Source of the DNA: a phage
Reading direction: 5' to 3' (one strand)
Assembly: GCA_012212665.1 (NCBI GenBank)
Contig: GCA_012212665.1_4517.1
Length of the DNA: 64,000 nucleotides
How positions within the stretch are numbered: the stretch's first letter is position 1; the number at the start of each line of letters is the position of its first letter. The notes below the pieces were generated by a model, which was given only the letters and a program-made list of their open reading frames with translations, did not search any database and was not told the origin of the DNA. Positions 3,245 through 18,763 of this stretch are shown piece after piece. Both the position numbers and the translations under genes were made by a program.

Positions 3245-3509
3245 CTAATTTCCTTAATTGATATTGCAACGAGCTAATAATTTCTTCGTTCATTTTAATA
3301 TACATGTCACGCAAGAAAGGTTTTAACCCATCACGAATAATTGCTAACGTATCACCTTTACATAAATTAACCAAATAAGGATGGTCTAAAGCATCCCAAC
3401 CAGGCTGATTAGCATACATACCATAGTTTTCTTCCATCATATGATTAAGGCGTTTGATATCTTGGATACGTGATTCAATAGCATCTTTCTGGAGTTGTTT
3501 AATATTCAT
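3228..3509 (-). CDS. Hypothetical protein
   Basis: ORF of 93 aa, minus strand. Confidence 0.4.
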   Translation of the reverse strand: MNIKQLQKDAIESRIQDIKRLNHMMEENYGMYANQPGWDALDHPYLVNLCKGDTLAIIRDGLKPFLRDMYIKMNEEIISSLQYQLRKLDDENN

Positions 3510-3970
3510 TAATAAAGGTCCTCTGAATAAAGTTCTTTCTCACTTCCGCCACGTTCAATACGTACCTGTCCAGCATACGTTGCAATAATCATTGCTTCTT
3601 CCCGCGTCCAGTAATTAGAGTATTGGTCGATAAAGCCTTGGTCGTCACCACAAACTTGTTGCGAGACTAATTGAGGACCAACTATATCAAGTACTTCAGC
3701 CATATCTTTAGAGTAATGACGAACTCCAGGAATAACCAGAGTTCCACCGCTCTTCAATTTAAACCTATTAGCTGCACATACTATAACACGTTGAACTTTT
3801 TGGTCGTTATTCCAATAGCACGTTTGCCAACAGATTTCAGGAACTTCATTCATTATATCATCAGCAGAATAATTATAACCGTAGGACTGGAATTTTTCTG
3901 CTAGACTTTCAGGAGTCTCACGAGACAAGGCCAAATCTAATAGCTCTAAACGTTCTTTAAATGATTTCAT
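3509..3970 (-). CDS. Hypothetical protein
   Basis: ORF of 153 aa; stop/start overlap with flanking ORFs suggests translational coupling. Confidence 0.45.
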
Positions 3971-4296
3971 TTAAACCATTCCTTAATACGTTGCCAAATA
4001 GATTTTTGTGCTTGTTTATTTACACCAATCGAACGAATAACCGGTTGCGACTGCTGATATTCTTTATAATCTTCTTTATAGATTTCGTAAGCTGCATCAA
4101 CAAATGAACTGATCGCTGCCATGTAGTTTTTACGAAGGCCAAATGGCGCGTCATTATTTTCACGAATAACCGTATATTGGCCTGCTTTAATCTTTACAAT
4201 TGTCCCTAAATAAGCCCCGTGGTACCAAATATCCCATCCTTCCTGAGTAGGTTCTGCACATTTACGAAGTTCGTTAATAATATTCAGCTTATTCAT
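3967..4296 (-). CDS. Hypothetical protein (motA.1 position)
   Basis: ORF of 109 aa directly downstream of motA. Confidence 0.45.
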
Positions 4297-4306
4297 TATA
4301 TATTCC

Positions 4307-4939
4307 TCACAGTACGTTAGTTACAAGGGTAATGATTTCTTTGGACACATTAGGGAAGTCAATGTAAGTATATTTACCACCGATTTTAATCTTAACATCA
4401 TTTTCAAGAGAAGTAAACAGCTTTGATTCAGTTTCTGACATGTTGTATGCAAAGATTCTAAGAGCGCCATCTCGTCGAATTTCAATTTGGCGAATGCCTA
4501 GAACTCGTTTAGCGAATCGAACTTCTAAGTTACTACGGTTTTCACCAATTTCTTTAACTTCAACTTTATCTTTAATATTTTCAAAAACAAAGTTCGCTAG
4601 TTCATGCATTTCAGGAGTAACTCCACGTGCTTTTCTGGTGTTACGTTTCTGGAGAAGTTCTGGAGCATTTTCTTGAGCAAATAGGTCTGCAGCTTTTTGG
4701 ATAATATCCATTGCTTCGCCGGTTGCCACAAGTCCATCACCGGATTTTTCGACTAAACCTTTCTTAATCAATACACCAATGTTAGAGTTAACAACTGACG
4801 CATTGTATTCCGCTTCCAGAGCTTCACGGACATTGGCAGCAGTGGTGAAGTTGTTCTTAATGATATAAACCATTATTGCAGCAGTTTTTTCATTCAGAGC
4901 GTTTTCAGAAGCTTTGATGATGTAAGTAACTTTAGACAT
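4307..4939 (-). CDS. motA: Middle-transcription activator MotA
   Basis: 210 aa, N-terminus MSKVTYIIKAS..NEKTA and internal NSNIGVLIKKGLVEKSGDGL match T4 MotA; synteny with gene 52. Confidence 0.9.
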   Translation of the reverse strand: MSKVTYIIKASENALNEKTAAIMVYIIKNNFTTAANVREALEAEYNASVVNSNIGVLIKKGLVEKSGDGLVATGEAMDIIQKAADLFAQENAPELLQKRNTRKARGVTPEMHELANFVFENIKDKVEVKEIGENRSNLEVRFAKRVLGIRQIEIRRDGALRIFAYNMSETESKLFTSLENDVKIKIGGKYTYIDFPNVSKEIITLVTNVL

Positions 4940-12296: not shown

Positions 12297-12321
12297 AATA
12301 TTCTCTTCAGTAGATTCCTAG

Positions 12322-12372
12322 GGCACTATTACTAAAGACCATATAATCTATCATCTTATGTGTAATAGTGCC
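12322..12372 (-). other. 11-bp perfect inverted repeat (GGCACTATTAC / GTAATAGTGCC) with 29-nt loop
   Basis: Located between the glycosyltransferase stop and the rIIA.1 start; loop contains a TATAAT-like element. Confidence 0.5.
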
Positions 12373-12388
12373 TCAGGCGATTCAGGAT

Positions 12389-13489
12389 TTACGCTGTGAA
12401 GATTTTATCCCACATCGCAACAACTGCATCTCGGTTATACTTCTTCCATACGGCTTCAGCACGTTTAACTCGAGCTTCGTATGTGTCAGTGAATTCTAAT
12501 ACAGCTTTTGTGTAAAGCGCAACTACTTCTTTCTTAGGAGTAGAGGAATCAATTTCTACACGCACAGTATCTGGGTCATATTCGAATGTCGCGTGCGGAT
12601 AATCCTTAAAAACTAACTGAATCACAGGGACACCTTTAGAGATGGCTTCAATAGAACTATTCTCTACCGTACCCGTGTCAGGACACGTATTGATAAGTGC
12701 TTTAGCTGTTTTAAGACGTTCCATGATTTCACTGTGTGGAGCATCAATAATAACAGGATACTTAGCCGGTGGTGCCCATTTACTAGGACAGTATCCTGCA
12801 CCATTTTCGCCTAGTGCTTTAATCGCTTCAAGAGCAACATCAGTACGACGCATTTTAGTGTCATAACGTTGTGCACTAATAATCAGATCAGTCGCCGGAA
12901 GAACTTCAGGTTTCTCATTCAAACAAATAACCGGATAATCTTCGGCTTCAAACAACGGATTTGCTCGCCAATAATCATAATCAATTTTGTCAGTCAGACC
13001 TGAAGTCATATAACAATATTTGCGTTCAAATTCACGGAAGGCTTTAGTAGGAGCATAACTCTTACCACCGTTCTTATGAATTTGAATAGTCTGGTCCCAA
13101 ATTTGAACAATGCCACGAGATACCGGTTCAAATGGTGTTGCCATAAAATTCTTATGAACTTTAGAGAGACCTGCGTCTTTAATTGCCTGAACGGTTAGTT
13201 TGGTCGGTTCCATTGTAACAACGAAATCGTACTCATTAATGCCGGCTAGTTCAACAATCTTACGAGCCATAGTATAACTCATACCTAGACTGAATTTAGT
13301 CAGATGACCAACAGGATGATGATTAACCTTCCAATCACCAAATGTGTCATTATCAAAACCGATATAATCAATATCGGCACCGATAGAAACTAAATATTTC
13401 AACACATTTAAATGTACTGCTTCAAGACCACCTTGTACACGTTCAGGATTAAATGGGACTGCACGAGATGGGATAAACATAACTTTCAT
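12389..13489 (-). CDS. GT-B fold glycosyltransferase (GT4-like), candidate DNA sugar transferase
   Basis: 366 aa; C-terminal motif TGTVENSSIEAISKGVPVI resembles the E-x7-E / EAxxxGxPVI signature of GT4 glycosyltransferases; lies between rIIA and gene 39. Confidence 0.6.
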   Translation of the reverse strand: MKVMFIPSRAVPFNPERVQGGLEAVHLNVLKYLVSIGADIDYIGFDNDTFGDWKVNHHPVGHLTKFSLGMSYTMARKIVELAGINEYDFVVTMEPTKLTVQAIKDAGLSKVHKNFMATPFEPVSRGIVQIWDQTIQIHKNGGKSYAPTKAFREFERKYCYMTSGLTDKIDYDYWRANPLFEAEDYPVICLNEKPEVLPATDLIISAQRYDTKMRRTDVALEAIKALGENGAGYCPSKWAPPAKYPVIIDAPHSEIMERLKTAKALINTCPDTGTVENSSIEAISKGVPVIQLVFKDYPHATFEYDPDTVRVEIDSSTPKKEVVALYTKAVLEFTDTYEARVKRAEAVWKKYNRDAVVAMWDKIFTA

Positions 13490-13500
13490 AATTAAGCCTT

Positions 13501-13533
13501 ATTAAAATTAAAATGAAGCTCCTAAAGGAGCTT
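13501..13533 (-). terminator. Terminator-like hairpin downstream of gene 39
   Basis: Minus-strand hairpin AAGCUCC-UUUA-GGAGCUU overlapping the gene 39 stop, followed by a U-rich tract. Confidence 0.45.
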
Positions 13534-15349
13534 AGGACATCCATTCTTTACGAAGTTCTGAATCATCACCCAACAACATTTCAAAGAGTTCTTTCCAATT
13601 TTCAGGAAGTTTAACTACGTCGTACACAGGGTTCTGAATCATTTCACGATACTCTGACTTTTCAAGGGAGCCTAATCCCTTGATGTATCGAATACTATGC
13701 TTAGGCAGTGTATCTTTAACTTCTTCATACTCAGCTACAGTATAAAACCATTTTTGAGTTTTGCCAATTTGTGCAATAATTACAGGTGTTTTAACAAAGC
13801 GAATACGTCCTTGTTCAAACAATTCAGGCCAATTACTAAAGAAAGCAAGCAAAGCCGGATAGATACTTCCAAGACCGTCATGATCGGCATCGGTCATAAT
13901 TGCAATATTACGATAGTTCGTATTCTCTGCCTTTTCACCAAGAATAAGACCTGTGATAGCACAGATATCGAATAACTCTTTGTTCTTCATCATATCAGCA
14001 TATGACATACCCCAGCTATTCATCACCTTACCACGTAATGGGAATCCACCGTGTAGTTCACGGTCACGAACATCAATGAGATATCCAATTGCCGAATCAC
14101 CTTCTGTTAAGAACAATGTCGTATCTGCATCTTTACCACATTGGTTAGCTTTAATATGCTTATGAACCTTAGCTTTAGTTGCCTTTTTAGCTGCTTTAGT
14201 TTCTGCAGCCTTTTCTGCTGCCAATTTACGAGCTAATGCTGCTTCAACAATAGGCATAATCAAGGCTTCGTTTTTAAGAAGTGCCTGGGCAATTTTCTTA
14301 GCATCTAATTGGATATGATTACGAATATCACCATACGTTGACGTTAAACGTTCTTTAGTCTGAGAATCAAAACGCATGTTGCTCATGTCTCGAATAAACA
14401 TCAACATTGTGAGGCATTCTTTAACACGAGCTTTAGTGACTTCAATACCCTTATATTTCTTTTTAATACCTGGCAAAAGATGTTCGCAGATATCATCCAT
14501 TACACATTCAACATGATGACCACCATTTTTAGTATGGATGTTATTCACATAAGTTAAATGACGGAAGCCATCTGGTGATGTTGTGAATGCTATAGAGACT
14601 TTATCATTTTCTTGAATGATGTTATCTTCACCAAATTGTTTAGCAAATCGTTTAAAATTACCATCGACCTTTTTACCATTAAATGTGAACTTGATATCAG
14701 GATAAACGACTGCCAATGTTTGAAGTCGATCTAAAGTAATATCTAAATAAATTTGAGATAAATTATGCTCTTCAAATGAAGTGAAATCAGGAGTGAAGAT
14801 TACTTTAGTGCCTTTACCTTTAGATTTCTTAGAAGACCATGATTTGTTTTCCATTCCGTTTGAACAGTTAACAGTGATTTCATTTTCGCCATCTGACGTG
14901 ATGCCTGTAAACAACGTAGAGAAGATATTAGTTAAACTACTCCCGACGCCGTTCATACCACCAGTCTTGCGTTCAGAGTCATCACCAAAGTTACCACCGG
15001 CCTTTGGAATAGTCCAGGCTGCTACAGGCCCAGGAATTTGTTCACCTGTTTGGTCGGTAACTAAACCTTGAGGAATACCACGTCCGTTATCTTCCACCGA
15101 AACTTGATTATTTTTAATTTGCACATCAATTTTATTTGCAAACTTAAATGATGTACGAATAGCTTCATCAACCGAGTTGTCAATAATCTCATCGATTAAT
15201 TTAACCAGGCCAGGAACATATTCAACTTGTTGATATTTACCAAACAAAAACCGCTCGTGGGCTTCTTTAGCAGAAGAACCAATATACATACCACTACGTT
15301 TCTTAATATGTTCTACATCTGACAATACCTTAATTTCATTTTTAATCAT
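13532..15349 (-). CDS. 39: DNA topoisomerase II large subunit, single fused polypeptide equivalent to T4 gp39 plus gp60
   Basis: 605 aa continuous ORF with GyrB-like ATPase (GHKL) and TOPRIM regions; T4 encodes this as gene 39 (516 aa) plus split gene 60. Confidence 0.9.
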   Translation of the reverse strand: MIKNEIKVLSDVEHIKKRSGMYIGSSAKEAHERFLFGKYQQVEYVPGLVKLIDEIIDNSVDEAIRTSFKFANKIDVQIKNNQVSVEDNGRGIPQGLVTDQTGEQIPGPVAAWTIPKAGGNFGDDSERKTGGMNGVGSSLTNIFSTLFTGITSDGENEITVNCSNGMENKSWSSKKSKGKGTKVIFTPDFTSFEEHNLSQIYLDITLDRLQTLAVVYPDIKFTFNGKKVDGNFKRFAKQFGEDNIIQENDKVSIAFTTSPDGFRHLTYVNNIHTKNGGHHVECVMDDICEHLLPGIKKKYKGIEVTKARVKECLTMLMFIRDMSNMRFDSQTKERLTSTYGDIRNHIQLDAKKIAQALLKNEALIMPIVEAALARKLAAEKAAETKAAKKATKAKVHKHIKANQCGKDADTTLFLTEGDSAIGYLIDVRDRELHGGFPLRGKVMNSWGMSYADMMKNKELFDICAITGLILGEKAENTNYRNIAIMTDADHDGLGSIYPALLAFFSNWPELFEQGRIRFVKTPVIIAQIGKTQKWFYTVAEYEEVKDTLPKHSIRYIKGLGSLEKSEYREMIQNPVYDVVKLPENWKELFEMLLGDDSELRKEWMS

Positions 15350-15371
15350 GTTGTCTCCTCGTTATGAAGGT

Positions 15372-15397
15372 ATTCTATCATCCGAAATCTAAAGCAA
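15372..15397 (-). promoter_or_regulatory. MotA-dependent middle promoter upstream of gene 39
   Basis: Minus strand TTGCTTTAG (MotA box) -12 nt- TAGAAT; same module as at 49498..49522. Confidence 0.6.
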
Positions 15398-15412
15398 AAA
15401 GGGCCGAAGCCC
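15391..15412 (-). terminator. Intrinsic terminator overlapping the MotA box
   Basis: Minus-strand hairpin GGGC-UUCG-GCCC followed by UUUUUUGCUUU, directly after the stop of the upstream ORF. Confidence 0.6.
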
Positions 15413-15835
15413 TTATTTAAATTTAATTTTCTGAAGTGCATCAATTGCAGCCAAACGCCCTTGTTCACTTTTAACCGTAATGACCACATCACCTGATACG
15501 ATCACTGAACCATCAACAAATTCTATAGAGCCTTTTTTGAAATCGACAGCTGTATCTGATTCCGGAACTTCTTCAAAGAATTTAAATTCTGCACCATAAA
15601 TCAGAATATCACCTTGCATACTAATGATTGTACGTCCAGGTCCATCGGTTTCAGCGGCAATCATTGAAACACCGTAGCCAATCATCTCTTCTACAATAAA
15701 ATCTCTTGATAATAAAACTGTATGCAGAGTAGTGTTAAGACGTTTACCAGTTGTATTAAGAATTCTCAAGAAATTATCTTCTTGGCCTTTGATAATACGA
15801 TATTTCTTACCAACTTCAAAACCTTTAAAAGCCAT
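15413..15835 (-). CDS. Hypothetical protein
   Basis: ORF of 140 aa upstream of gene 39. Confidence 0.5.
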   Translation of the reverse strand: MAFKGFEVGKKYRIIKGQEDNFLRILNTTGKRLNTTLHTVLLSRDFIVEEMIGYGVSMIAAETDGPGRTIISMQGDILIYGAEFKFFEEVPESDTAVDFKKGSIEFVDGSVIVSGDVVITVKSEQGRLAAIDALQKIKFK

Positions 15836-15837
15836 AA

Positions 15838-16017
15838 TTATCCCTTCTTAAGTAAGTCGTAAAAACCACCATTCACATGTTTAGGAGCAGAAACCCGACG
15901 AGTAGACAGACGATGACATTCAGGGCAAACATCGTTTTCTCGTTCAGAAATCCTTTTAATTTTTTCATATTCATGGCCACAATCTTCAGATTGACATTTA
16001 TAGTCGTATAACGGCAT
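15838..16017 (-). CDS. Small zinc-ribbon protein (FmdB-like CxxC...CxxC)
   Basis: Unannotated 59-aa ORF MPLYDYKCQSEDCGHEYEKIKRISERENDVCPECH..., two CxxC pairs; tightly packed between flanking genes. Confidence 0.45.
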   Translation of the reverse strand: MPLYDYKCQSEDCGHEYEKIKRISERENDVCPECHRLSTRRVSAPKHVNGGFYDLLKKG

Positions 16018-16019
16018 TA

Positions 16020-16442
16020 TTATTCCTTAAAATGTGCTTTCAACATTTGATACAAAGACCATGCCTGGTCGTTATTTTCGATAGTAACTTTCATTACTGG
16101 GAATTCTGTGAAATCTTCTATCTGTTCTTGCTCTTCAGATGCTTGATACGGATTTCCCACTTCATCAAAAAACTCTGCTTCACTAGTAGAGAGCCAGATA
16201 AAGTTTTCATCAAGAATATCACCGCCTGTTGCGTATCCAACCATGCCAGTAGATGTCACAATTTTAGTAGGACGACCAAGATGGTCAACATCTAATACTT
16301 TAAATGGTTCCAGGCCAAGACGTCGCGCATAAATCCCATTATCAGTGTGGTCTTTAATAAACTCTTCTTGGGCACGTTTATCTTTAAATTTGTACCATGA
16401 GTTAACGCGGAATTTATTAGCCATTAGTAAGTTTCCTTCCAA
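16020..16442 (-). CDS. Hypothetical protein
   Basis: ORF of 140 aa. Confidence 0.5.
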
Positions 16443-16651
16443 TAAGTTGTACCGTTTTCAGTGATTTCACGGAAGATACCATAGATAGGCATTTCATCAC
16501 CGAGTTTTTCGTAAACGTAAACCACTTCAGTGTAGCATAAAAATTCAGTCCAGTTTTTCTGTACAACAACTAAATCAGGATTAAACAGAACATCTTCAAA
16601 CTCATCGATGTTTGAATCAGTAGTTACGTTTTTAATGATTTGACGTTTCAT
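16424..16651 (-). CDS. Hypothetical protein
   Basis: ORF; start placed at the internal Met preceded by a GAGGAG Shine-Dalgarno. Confidence 0.4.
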
Positions 16652-17292: not shown

Positions 17293-17712
17293 TTATGCGA
17301 AAGCAGCTGGGCTATATTTTTTAATTTGGAATTCAGGAACTACCATGAACTGACCAGCGAAAACGATGTTATAAAGCTTAACACCATCTTCAACCCATTG
17401 GTCACTAATAAATCCGGCGATTTGCTTAGTTTTCCATGGCGTTCCATCAGTTGCCGCAGCAATAGTGAATTCATGGTCTTTTTCAACAGAAACTGATCTG
17501 CATAGTCCCCATTTGAACGCTTTTTCTTCTGGCTCAATGAACTGGCTTGAGACGTAGCCAATATTACCGTTAGCATCACGAACTTTAACTTGGTTACGAC
17601 CAAAAACCGGATCACTCACAGAAAGAACTTCAACCAACTTCCCGGCAACTTTAGAGCGAGAAGCAACAGATACATATACGTAATCACCTGTAGAGAGATT
17701 TACAATATTCAT
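17293..17712 (-). CDS. Hypothetical protein, member of a tandem paralogue family (shared C-terminal SDQWVEDG..LYNIVF motif)
   Basis: 139 aa; C-terminus GFISDQWVEDGVKLYNIVFAGQF.VV shared with the next two ORFs. Confidence 0.55.
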   Translation of the reverse strand: MNIVNLSTGDYVYVSVASRSKVAGKLVEVLSVSDPVFGRNQVKVRDANGNIGYVSSQFIEPEEKAFKWGLCRSVSVEKDHEFTIAAATDGTPWKTKQIAGFISDQWVEDGVKLYNIVFAGQFMVVPEFQIKKYSPAAFA

Positions 17713-17721
17713 AATAATTCC

Positions 17722-18207
17722 TTAAGCTTTACGAGGAGACACATAGCGAGTGATTTCAGATTCTTTAACAACTCGGAAGTCACCTAAGAATACGATATTG
17801 TATAACTTTTCACCATCTTCAACCCATTGGTCACTAATGAAGCCACACATAGTATCAGTTTTGTTTGGATAACCGTATTCATCGATGAAGTCAAATTCTT
17901 TATCAGTCTGGAATTCAACACCTTTACACAAGGCCCATTTGAACTGTGCATTAGGCTCTGTGGATTCAACTTTTTCTCTTGAAGCAAAAGCACCACTCAC
18001 AGGAGTTTCCAAGAACTTTGCACGAACATAAGCAAATTGGGTGTCCTGTGTCCCATGACTAGGAATAATACGAACTTTTACCTCAGAATCTTCATCTTTA
18101 ACGCCTTCTTTAAGTTGAATACTTACAACTTCGACCAATTTTCCTGCTGCTTTAGAACGAGATTTGTTAGATACGCGAACGATTTCACCAATAATACCAA
18201 GATTCAT
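17722..18207 (-). CDS. Hypothetical protein, tandem paralogue family member
   Basis: 161 aa; C-terminus GFISDQWVEDGEKLYNIVFLGDFRVV; N-terminal region also resembles the 17293..17712 product (KSRSKAAGKLVEV.S). Confidence 0.55.
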   Translation of the reverse strand: MNLGIIGEIVRVSNKSRSKAAGKLVEVVSIQLKEGVKDEDSEVKVRIIPSHGTQDTQFAYVRAKFLETPVSGAFASREKVESTEPNAQFKWALCKGVEFQTDKEFDFIDEYGYPNKTDTMCGFISDQWVEDGEKLYNIVFLGDFRVVKESEITRYVSPRKA

Positions 18208-18268: not shown

Positions 18269-18763
18269 TTAATTAAGGATATTAACCACAGCACTACGTG
18301 GAACTACACTAAAATCACCTGCATGAACAACGTTCAGAAGTTCAACACCGTCTTCAATCCACTGGTCAGTTACCCATCCATTTACTGGACCTGCGAACGG
18401 GCGTCGAATTGAAACATATTTACACAACAAATCAGTAGGCTCAATAGGCTTAATCAGAGTACCGTACATACAAGCGATATCCATATCAATACAGATGTCT
18501 TTAACGGGTTCTACTTCTTCAATCAACAGTTCAAAGTCGGTGCTTGGAAGGGCGGTAGTAGAAATTGTACCATATGAATTTTTAATTTCTAAGAATAACC
18601 AAGGGCCTTCAGCTTGTTTGATGAAGTTAACAATAGTGAAACTATTGCCTTGAGTGGCACCTAAAATTTCACAAAACTTTTCGTAAGCTCGCACTGAAGC
18701 ACTGTACCAGTTGATTTGTTTTTCGTCTTTCAGGATGTAAGTAGCCGTAGTATTGATATTCAT
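18269..18763 (-). CDS. Hypothetical protein, divergent tandem paralogue family member
   Basis: 164 aa; C-terminus GWVTDQWIEDGVELLNVVHAGDFSVV. Confidence 0.5.
   Translation of the reverse strand: MNINTTATYILKDEKQINWYSASVRAYEKFCEILGATQGNSFTIVNFIKQAEGPWLFLEIKNSYGTISTTALPSTDFELLIEEVEPVKDICIDMDIACMYGTLIKPIEPTDLLCKYVSIRRPFAGPVNGWVTDQWIEDGVELLNVVHAGDFSVVPRSAVVNILN

Follow-up and report, generated by a model that had tools for sequence, protein, structure and literature searches.

Organization of the gene 39 locus

The stretch of phage DNA analysed here, hereafter the window, is 64 kb long and its features of interest are collected in Table 1. Gene 39 has an ATG start, preceded by a strong ribosome-binding site, and a TAA stop and encodes a protein of 605 aa, and no in-frame stop was found ahead of the terminal TAA anywhere in the ORF. 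The earlier note had the coordinates and the length of this single ORF exactly right. The protein belongs to PHROG 543, 'DNA topoisomerase II large subunit' (E = 1e-286).

The GHKL motifs identified in a motif scan are E54 and N58 (in EIIDN, aa 54-58) and D87 (in DNGRG, aa 87-91); the ATP lid, GGMNGVG, is at aa 130-136 and the QTK loop of the transducer domain at aa 330-332. EGDSA and DADHDG are both found on this one polypeptide, and the TOPRIM of the 605-aa protein is thus complete. The core Toprim Pfam model had no match in the gene 39 protein at E <=0.001, and the TOPRIM_C model (PF16898) scored 28.2 bits, marginally below its gathering score of 29; despite this shortfall, the TOPRIM is covered by the motifs and by a full-length alignment to solved structures, in which it is paired with the TOPRIM of T6 gp39, human TOP2 and ParE chains. 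The full catalytic motif set of a type IIA topoisomerase B subunit is present in the protein.

Table 1. Features of the gene 39 region and the gene for the partner subunit
Feature	Position in window	Strand	Basis
Gene 52 homologue, GyrA/ParC-like partner, 441 aa	5129..6454	minus	Pfam PF00521 DNA_topoisoIV, E = 4.7e-78
366-aa homologue of RB69 ORF003c (RB69p003), predicted GT-B arabinosyltransferase, downstream of gene 39	12389..13489	minus	Sequence identity, PHROG 8302
Putative terminator-like hairpin AAGCTCC-TTTA-GGAGCTT over gene 39 stop codon	13516..13533	minus	Consensus scan
Gene 39, uninterrupted, GyrB/ParE-like large subunit of type IIA DNA topoisomerase	13532..15349	minus	ORF list
TOPRIM-associated C-terminal domain, aa 520-604	13538..13792	minus	Pfam PF16898 TOPRIM_C and T6 gp39 alignment
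Bypass-site equivalent, Gly492 (GGT) followed directly by Leu493 (CTT)	13871..13876	minus	Codon table, sequence, alignments
TOPRIM DxDxDG motif, D487-A-D-H-D-G492, gp60-equivalent part	13874..13891	minus	Codon table and motif scan
Empty MobA-element insertion site, codons A474-E-N-T477	13919..13930	minus	Protein alignment, DNA homology blocks, boundary arithmetic
TOPRIM EGDSA glutamate motif, aa 416-420, gp39-equivalent part	14090..14104	minus	Motif scan and T4 gp39 alignment
Transducer domain, aa 249-385	14195..14605	minus	Pfam PF00204 DNA_gyraseB, E = 2.8e-14
GHKL ATPase domain, aa 47-190	14780..15211	minus	Pfam PF02518 HATPase_c, E = 3e-11
Shine-Dalgarno sequence GAGGAG, 5 nt 5' of gene 39 ATG (15349)	15355..15360	minus	Read from sequence

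The gene for the gp52 homologue lies approximately 7 kb from gene 39 in the same 64-kb window. The T4 and T6 enzymes have been shown biochemically to carry out ATP-dependent DNA relaxation or decatenation (PMC11461880), and both ATP-dependent topoisomerase activity and assembly from two subunits would be expected here from homologues that are 80-96 % identical.

Relationship to RB69 and other close relatives

When positions 12300-16500 were used as the query in a megablast search, 581 phage records were matched. Escherichia phage PECP20 matched best, with 99.7 % identity across 100 % of the query. Behind it come about 140 records with 95-99 % identity, among them SHSML-52-1, JS09 and the O157 typing phages. 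In PECP20, which is 99.9 % identical over gene 39, the 1818-nt CDS is likewise annotated, under the name 'DNA topoisomerase large subunit'. The gene order is the same as in RB69, the type species of Mosigvirus, namely rIIA, rIIA.1, ORF003c (366 aa) and gene 39 (606 aa), and the match extends beyond gene 39 through a hypothetical gene, an FmdB-like gene, goF and cef. Judged on its sequence, the window can be assigned to an RB69-like (Mosigvirus-type) T-even phage.

The RB69 gp39 (NP_861694), also encoded by an unsplit single ORF, is 96 % identical to the window protein. The two differ in length (606 versus 605 aa), with a one-residue indel near residue 15, and by 23 substitutions, and are identical across the junction and bypass site described below; no functional difference between them is evident from the comparison. 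In RefSeq, RB69 gene 39 carries the note that an insertion in T4 splits the large Topo II subunit into gp60 and gp39. In a multiple alignment the gene 39 protein shares 96-98 % identity with its relatives, a level that would fit purifying selection.

Genes flanking gene 39

Gene 39 is separated from the next gene by a spacer of 42 nt (13490-13531), which holds the terminator-like hairpin. The product of the next gene is 99.2 % identical to RB69 ORF003c, and a Pfam scan of this 366-aa protein matched no family. ORF003c (RB69p003) was put forward as an arabinosyltransferase from HMM and HHpred analysis (PMC6024577), and structure prediction makes it a putative beta-arabinosyltransferase 2, predicted to act in the second step (PMC13326640), the modified base of RB69 being arabinosylated 5-hydroxycytosine (PMC13326640, a 2026 NAR paper). 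The glycosyltransferase label of the 366-aa protein is thus a prediction only, taken from published remote-homology and structure-prediction work. The gene is absent from the equivalent position in T4 and RB6, where the 3' end (that of gene 60 in T4) adjoins rIIA.1, and hence represents an independent insertion between rIIA.1 and gene 39 in the RB69 lineage. It has no connection with the 39/60 junction. Though the earlier note placed the junction next to the glycosyltransferase gene, the equivalent position (13919-13930) is about 430 nt inside gene 39, counting from the start of the neighbour at 13489, and gene 39 borders the 366-aa gene with its 3' end.

In phiE142 (NC_055709), a 97-98 % identical relative, a free-standing homing endonuclease of 265 aa with a NUMOD3 motif (3275-4072) has inserted precisely into the spacer that separates the gene 39 stop from the ORF003c homologue, and its start overlaps the gene 39 stop. 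A location inside gene 39 was considered and rejected, as the endonuclease gene is intergenic and downstream of the stop codon. The clade therefore has a mobile endonuclease beside gene 39, at a site different from that of T4 mobA, and it is probably of a different family from T4 mobA.

Some further features of the surrounding region were recorded. Terminator-like hairpins are enriched in 12300-16100 (8 observed versus 1.9 +/- 1.1 expected), and one of them, AAGGGCTTCGGCCCTT (15399-15414), which is GC-rich and palindromic and lies between gene 39 and the upstream 140-aa ORF, was scored on both strands. Two ORFs of 140 aa on the minus strand (15413-15835 and 16020-16442), which flank a 59-aa FmdB-like zinc-ribbon ORF (15838-16017), both match PHROG 622 and goF-type families. 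They have no mutual BLASTP match at 1e-3, and any duplication must therefore be old; of the two, just the second is annotated as comC-alpha (goF) in PECP20. Three tandem paralogous ORFs, also on the minus strand (17293-17712, 17722-18207 and 18269-18763; 139, 161 and 164 aa), correspond to the MotB/MotB-like region of RB69 and have in common the C-terminal motif GFISDQWVEDG.KLYNIVF.G.F.VV. Identity between the first and second is 43 % along most of their length; the match to the third is confined to the C-terminal approximately 30 residues.

Comparison with T4 gp39 and gp60

The T4 proteins gp39 (516 aa) and gp60 (160 aa, joined over the annotated 50-nt bypass) were built from NC_000866 and compared with the gene 39 protein using BLASTP. 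Residues 1-474 of the gene 39 protein correspond to T4 gp39 1-473 (79.1 % identity, E = 0) and residues 473-605 to T4 gp60 27-159 (86.5 % identity, E = 2e-87), and together these two T4 segments cover all 605 residues found here. The matches argue strongly for homology over the whole length of the ORF, well beyond chance expectation.

In a multiple alignment with RB69, phiE142 and RB6, the four unsplit proteins are gap-free through ...GEKA/ENTNY..., and a 71-residue block at this junction is unique to T4. The block is made up of the 43 C-terminal residues of gp39 and about 28-30 N-terminal residues of gp60. These gp39 residues and the first ~26-30 residues of gp60 are element-derived and lack a counterpart in the window protein. 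At the DNA level, homology to T4 extends from 15421 to 13929 of the window (5406-3911 in T4) and picks up again at 13919, and where the window has three codons at the junction, T4 carries approximately 1009 nt more. The additional DNA comprises the gp39 C-terminal extension (CTE), the mobA pseudogene, 60.1 and the gp60 N-terminal extension (NTE). Published MobA elements are 1097-1106 nt long and insert at aa 466-473 of Topo2L (bioRxiv 10.1101/2022.08.31.505936), adding a CTE of approximately 44 aa, an NTE of 44-46 aa and the bypass cassette (bioRxiv 10.1101/2022.08.31.505936), a description that the T4 block matches.

The gp39-equivalent part includes EGDSA and the gp60-equivalent part includes DADHDG, and because of this the T4 split lies inside the TOPRIM, as also noted elsewhere (PMC11461880; bioRxiv 10.1101/2022.08.31.505936). 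The earlier note had the split between the ATPase and TOPRIM regions, which is incorrect, as the EGDSA and DxDxD motifs are on opposite sides of it. It also equated the C-terminal 160 residues with gp60, which overstates the correspondence; only 133 residues (473-605) correspond to gp60, at positions 27-159. An alignment in which the C-terminus was unrelated to gp60 was named there as grounds for abandoning the view that the gene is unsplit. The C-terminus does match gp60, at the identity given above, and that view therefore stands, as it does in the alignments proposed with T4 gp39 and gp60 and with RB69 gp39, where one ORF covers both T4 proteins and RB69 is 96 % identical.

One further difference from T4 was seen at a separate position. 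The T4 reference gp39 (NC_000866) has MRLIRQTK at codons ~325-327, versus MRFDSQTK in the window (codons 326-328, about 14366-14374), RB69, RB6 and T6. The difference is a compensated -1/+1 frameshift in T4 across three codons (CGA TTG ATT CGT versus CGA TTT GAT TCT), immediately 5' of the catalytic QTK loop. It is either a polymorphism of the laboratory strain or an old sequencing error that the reference and the PDB construct 8yo3 have inherited.

The bypass site and searches for the cassette

At the position equivalent to the bypass site, the window reads GAT CAT GAC GGT CTT GGA AGT without interruption (13885-13865), whereas T4 reads GAT CAC GAT GGA [TAG...50 nt...GGA] TTA GGT TCT, with the 50-nt coding gap after GGA46. 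The codon for Gly492 is GGT and not the GGA take-off codon. No in-frame GGA-stop was found in gene 39, and the one place where a stop triplet comes after GGA (gene nt 852) is out of frame.

Searches of the 64-kb window for other parts of the T4 cassette were also negative. The take-off hairpin pattern had 0 matches in 64 kb even when as many as 3 mismatches were allowed, and tblastn of T4 gp60.1, the MobA fragment, the gp39 CTE and the gp60 NTE against the window found nothing better than E = 0.6. Nothing significant was found in 64 kb by blastn with the whole 1.1-kb T4 cassette; the best match (13919-13875, E = 0.017) was discarded, as it is merely the homologous coding stretch 5' of the bypass site. 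The region of gp60 containing the nascent-peptide signal (KKYKLQNNVRRSIKSSS), which lies in the element-derived NTE, has no counterpart in the window. Hence, the features of the MobA/bypass cassette, i.e. a split ORF with CTE and NTE, MobA or a remnant of it, the GGA take-off and landing codons and a gap of approximately 50 nt, are absent. The statement made from the sequence earlier, that there is no gene 60 split, bypass element or mobA, is borne out by the BLASTP collinearity, the uninterrupted codons and the empty tblastn and hairpin searches, and the search it proposed for take-off and landing GGA codons and a hairpin found GGT at Gly492, no 50-nt gap and no hairpin.

Distribution of the unsplit gene

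The distribution of the unsplit state was assessed using as the probe an 85-aa peptide (window 13775-14029) that includes the junction as well as the bypass site, and a match was considered contiguous if at least 80 % of the probe was covered in one place. The peptide was contiguous in 1779 of the 1853 matching phage records, and these records span phages of Escherichia, Klebsiella, Salmonella, Acinetobacter, Aeromonas, Vibrio and Campylobacter. The DNA of the T4 cassette was at least 80 % covered in 41 records only, essentially T4 and its closest relatives, with partial and weaker matches in Salmonella S16-like, Proteus and Acinetobacter phages. This distribution is consistent with the six MobA clades described previously (bioRxiv 10.1101/2022.08.31.505936). 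At least 95 % identity to gene 39 was found in 144 records. Among the matches listed (60 of 303), gene 39 is in one full-length piece, except in one record that ends within the gene, and no MobA element was present in relatives from the window clade among the matches listed.

The unsplit gene 39 is the rule, the ordinary and ancestral form, and the split, ribosome-hopping form of T4 is the rare exception. The published label for the unsplit state is 'parental genome (no MobA insert)' (bioRxiv 10.1101/2022.08.31.505936). Hence, the reference in the earlier note to a 'former' junction, which would derive the window gene from a split allele, has the direction reversed, as the evidence points to the unsplit form as parental and to T4 as derived.

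A shortened bypass of approximately 20 nt has been reported for the Aeromonas clade (bioRxiv 10.1101/2022.08.31.505936). In Aeromonas phage Aes012 (JN377895), a split topoisomerase II at ~4119-4786 is annotated with a 'predicted 17 nt non-coding translational bypass region'.

Origin of the unsplit allele

The gene 39 of this RB69-like phage is almost certainly an ordinary parental allele, translated conventionally and in which the MobA element never inserted. No observation at odds with this reading was made. The continuity of the ORF, the homology, the intact motifs, the absence of the cassette and the distribution among phages, on which this reading draws, were all observed directly. One 605-aa polypeptide carries the GHKL ATPase, the transducer and the complete TOPRIM, and would pair with the gp52 homologue to form a (gp39)2(gp52)2, or A2B2, type IIA ATP-dependent topoisomerase, as in T2 and T6. 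Its translation would involve no recoding. It is the MobA homing-endonuclease element, approximately 1.1 kb including the 50-nt bypass cassette, that splits the T4 gene into 39 and 60; in the window phage it would never have inserted, and the site is empty for that reason.

A secondary re-fusion ('hit and run'), in which an ancestral MobA/bypass element was later excised and the single ORF re-created, is a process that exists in the family, as re-fused alleles have been reported in eight Aeromonas phages (bioRxiv 10.1101/2022.08.31.505936). However, those alleles keep insertions homologous to the CTE and NTE (bioRxiv 10.1101/2022.08.31.505936), whereas codons 474-477 of the window gene add no residues to those of the parental alleles in RB6 and RB69, neither the CTE nor the NTE peptide is matched in the 64-kb window, and the clade relatives among the matches listed have no element. 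Re-fusion after loss of the element was rejected on the basis of the gap-free junction and the lack of CTE and NTE remnants, and we consider it very improbable. A recoding event or interruption hidden elsewhere in gene 39, or an inactive pseudogene, is extremely improbable: nothing in support was found, the one GGA-stop being out of frame, and against it gene 39 has no in-frame stops and all catalytic motifs intact, the indels relative to RB69, phiE142, RB6 and T4/T6 are single-residue gaps only, apart from the 71-residue T4 junction block, and the 96-98 % protein identity to relatives argues against a pseudogene.

It is possible, though rather doubtful, that RB69-like alleles are refractory to MobA homing. 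The target region (codons 467-498) shares 77 % nucleotide identity (74/96) with the parental site of the Tequatrovirus RB6, and the cytosines in RB69-type DNA are arabinosylated, not glucosylated. Refractoriness, if true, could explain why no element is seen in the relatives listed despite the E. coli hosts that they share with MobA-bearing T4-like phages. It would be a small point on barriers to the spread of homing endonucleases and not a new type of system.

Comparison with known systems

An unsplit gene 39 has been known since T2 and T6 were compared. Annotations, publications and a solved structure all exist for it, and the work showing that MobA and the bypass cassette are mobile has the unsplit gene as its premise (Bonocora et al. 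2011, as cited in bioRxiv 10.1101/2022.08.31.505936). The window gene is one more empty-site allele, at most a parental comparator for mapping the boundaries of MobA insertions, and has little significance beyond the correct annotation of gene 39. For annotators, two corrections follow, namely that the T4 split cuts the TOPRIM metal-binding site and does not separate domains, and that the arabinosyltransferase-like neighbour is unconnected with the 39/60 junction.

The closest parallels outside the window clade are in Tequatrovirus, the genus of T2 and T6, which is different from that of the window phage. The unsplit gp39 of RB6, also a Tequatrovirus, is likewise 605 aa long, is 82.5 % identical to the window protein and is gap-free at the junction. 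The T2 and T6 topoisomerase II is a two-subunit enzyme (PMC11461880), and a cryo-EM structure exists for the single-chain gp39 of T6 (PDB 8ylu and related entries; PMC11461880). This chain (8ylu_C), of 604 aa, includes the GHKL, transducer and TOPRIM regions and pairs with gp52, and the gene 39 protein matches it from end to end (1160 bits) with a single one-residue gap. Further alignments of the gene 39 protein were obtained with 8yo3_C, in which T4 gp39 and gp60 are artificially fused, and with human TOP2A/B, yeast Top2, ParE and GyrB chains.
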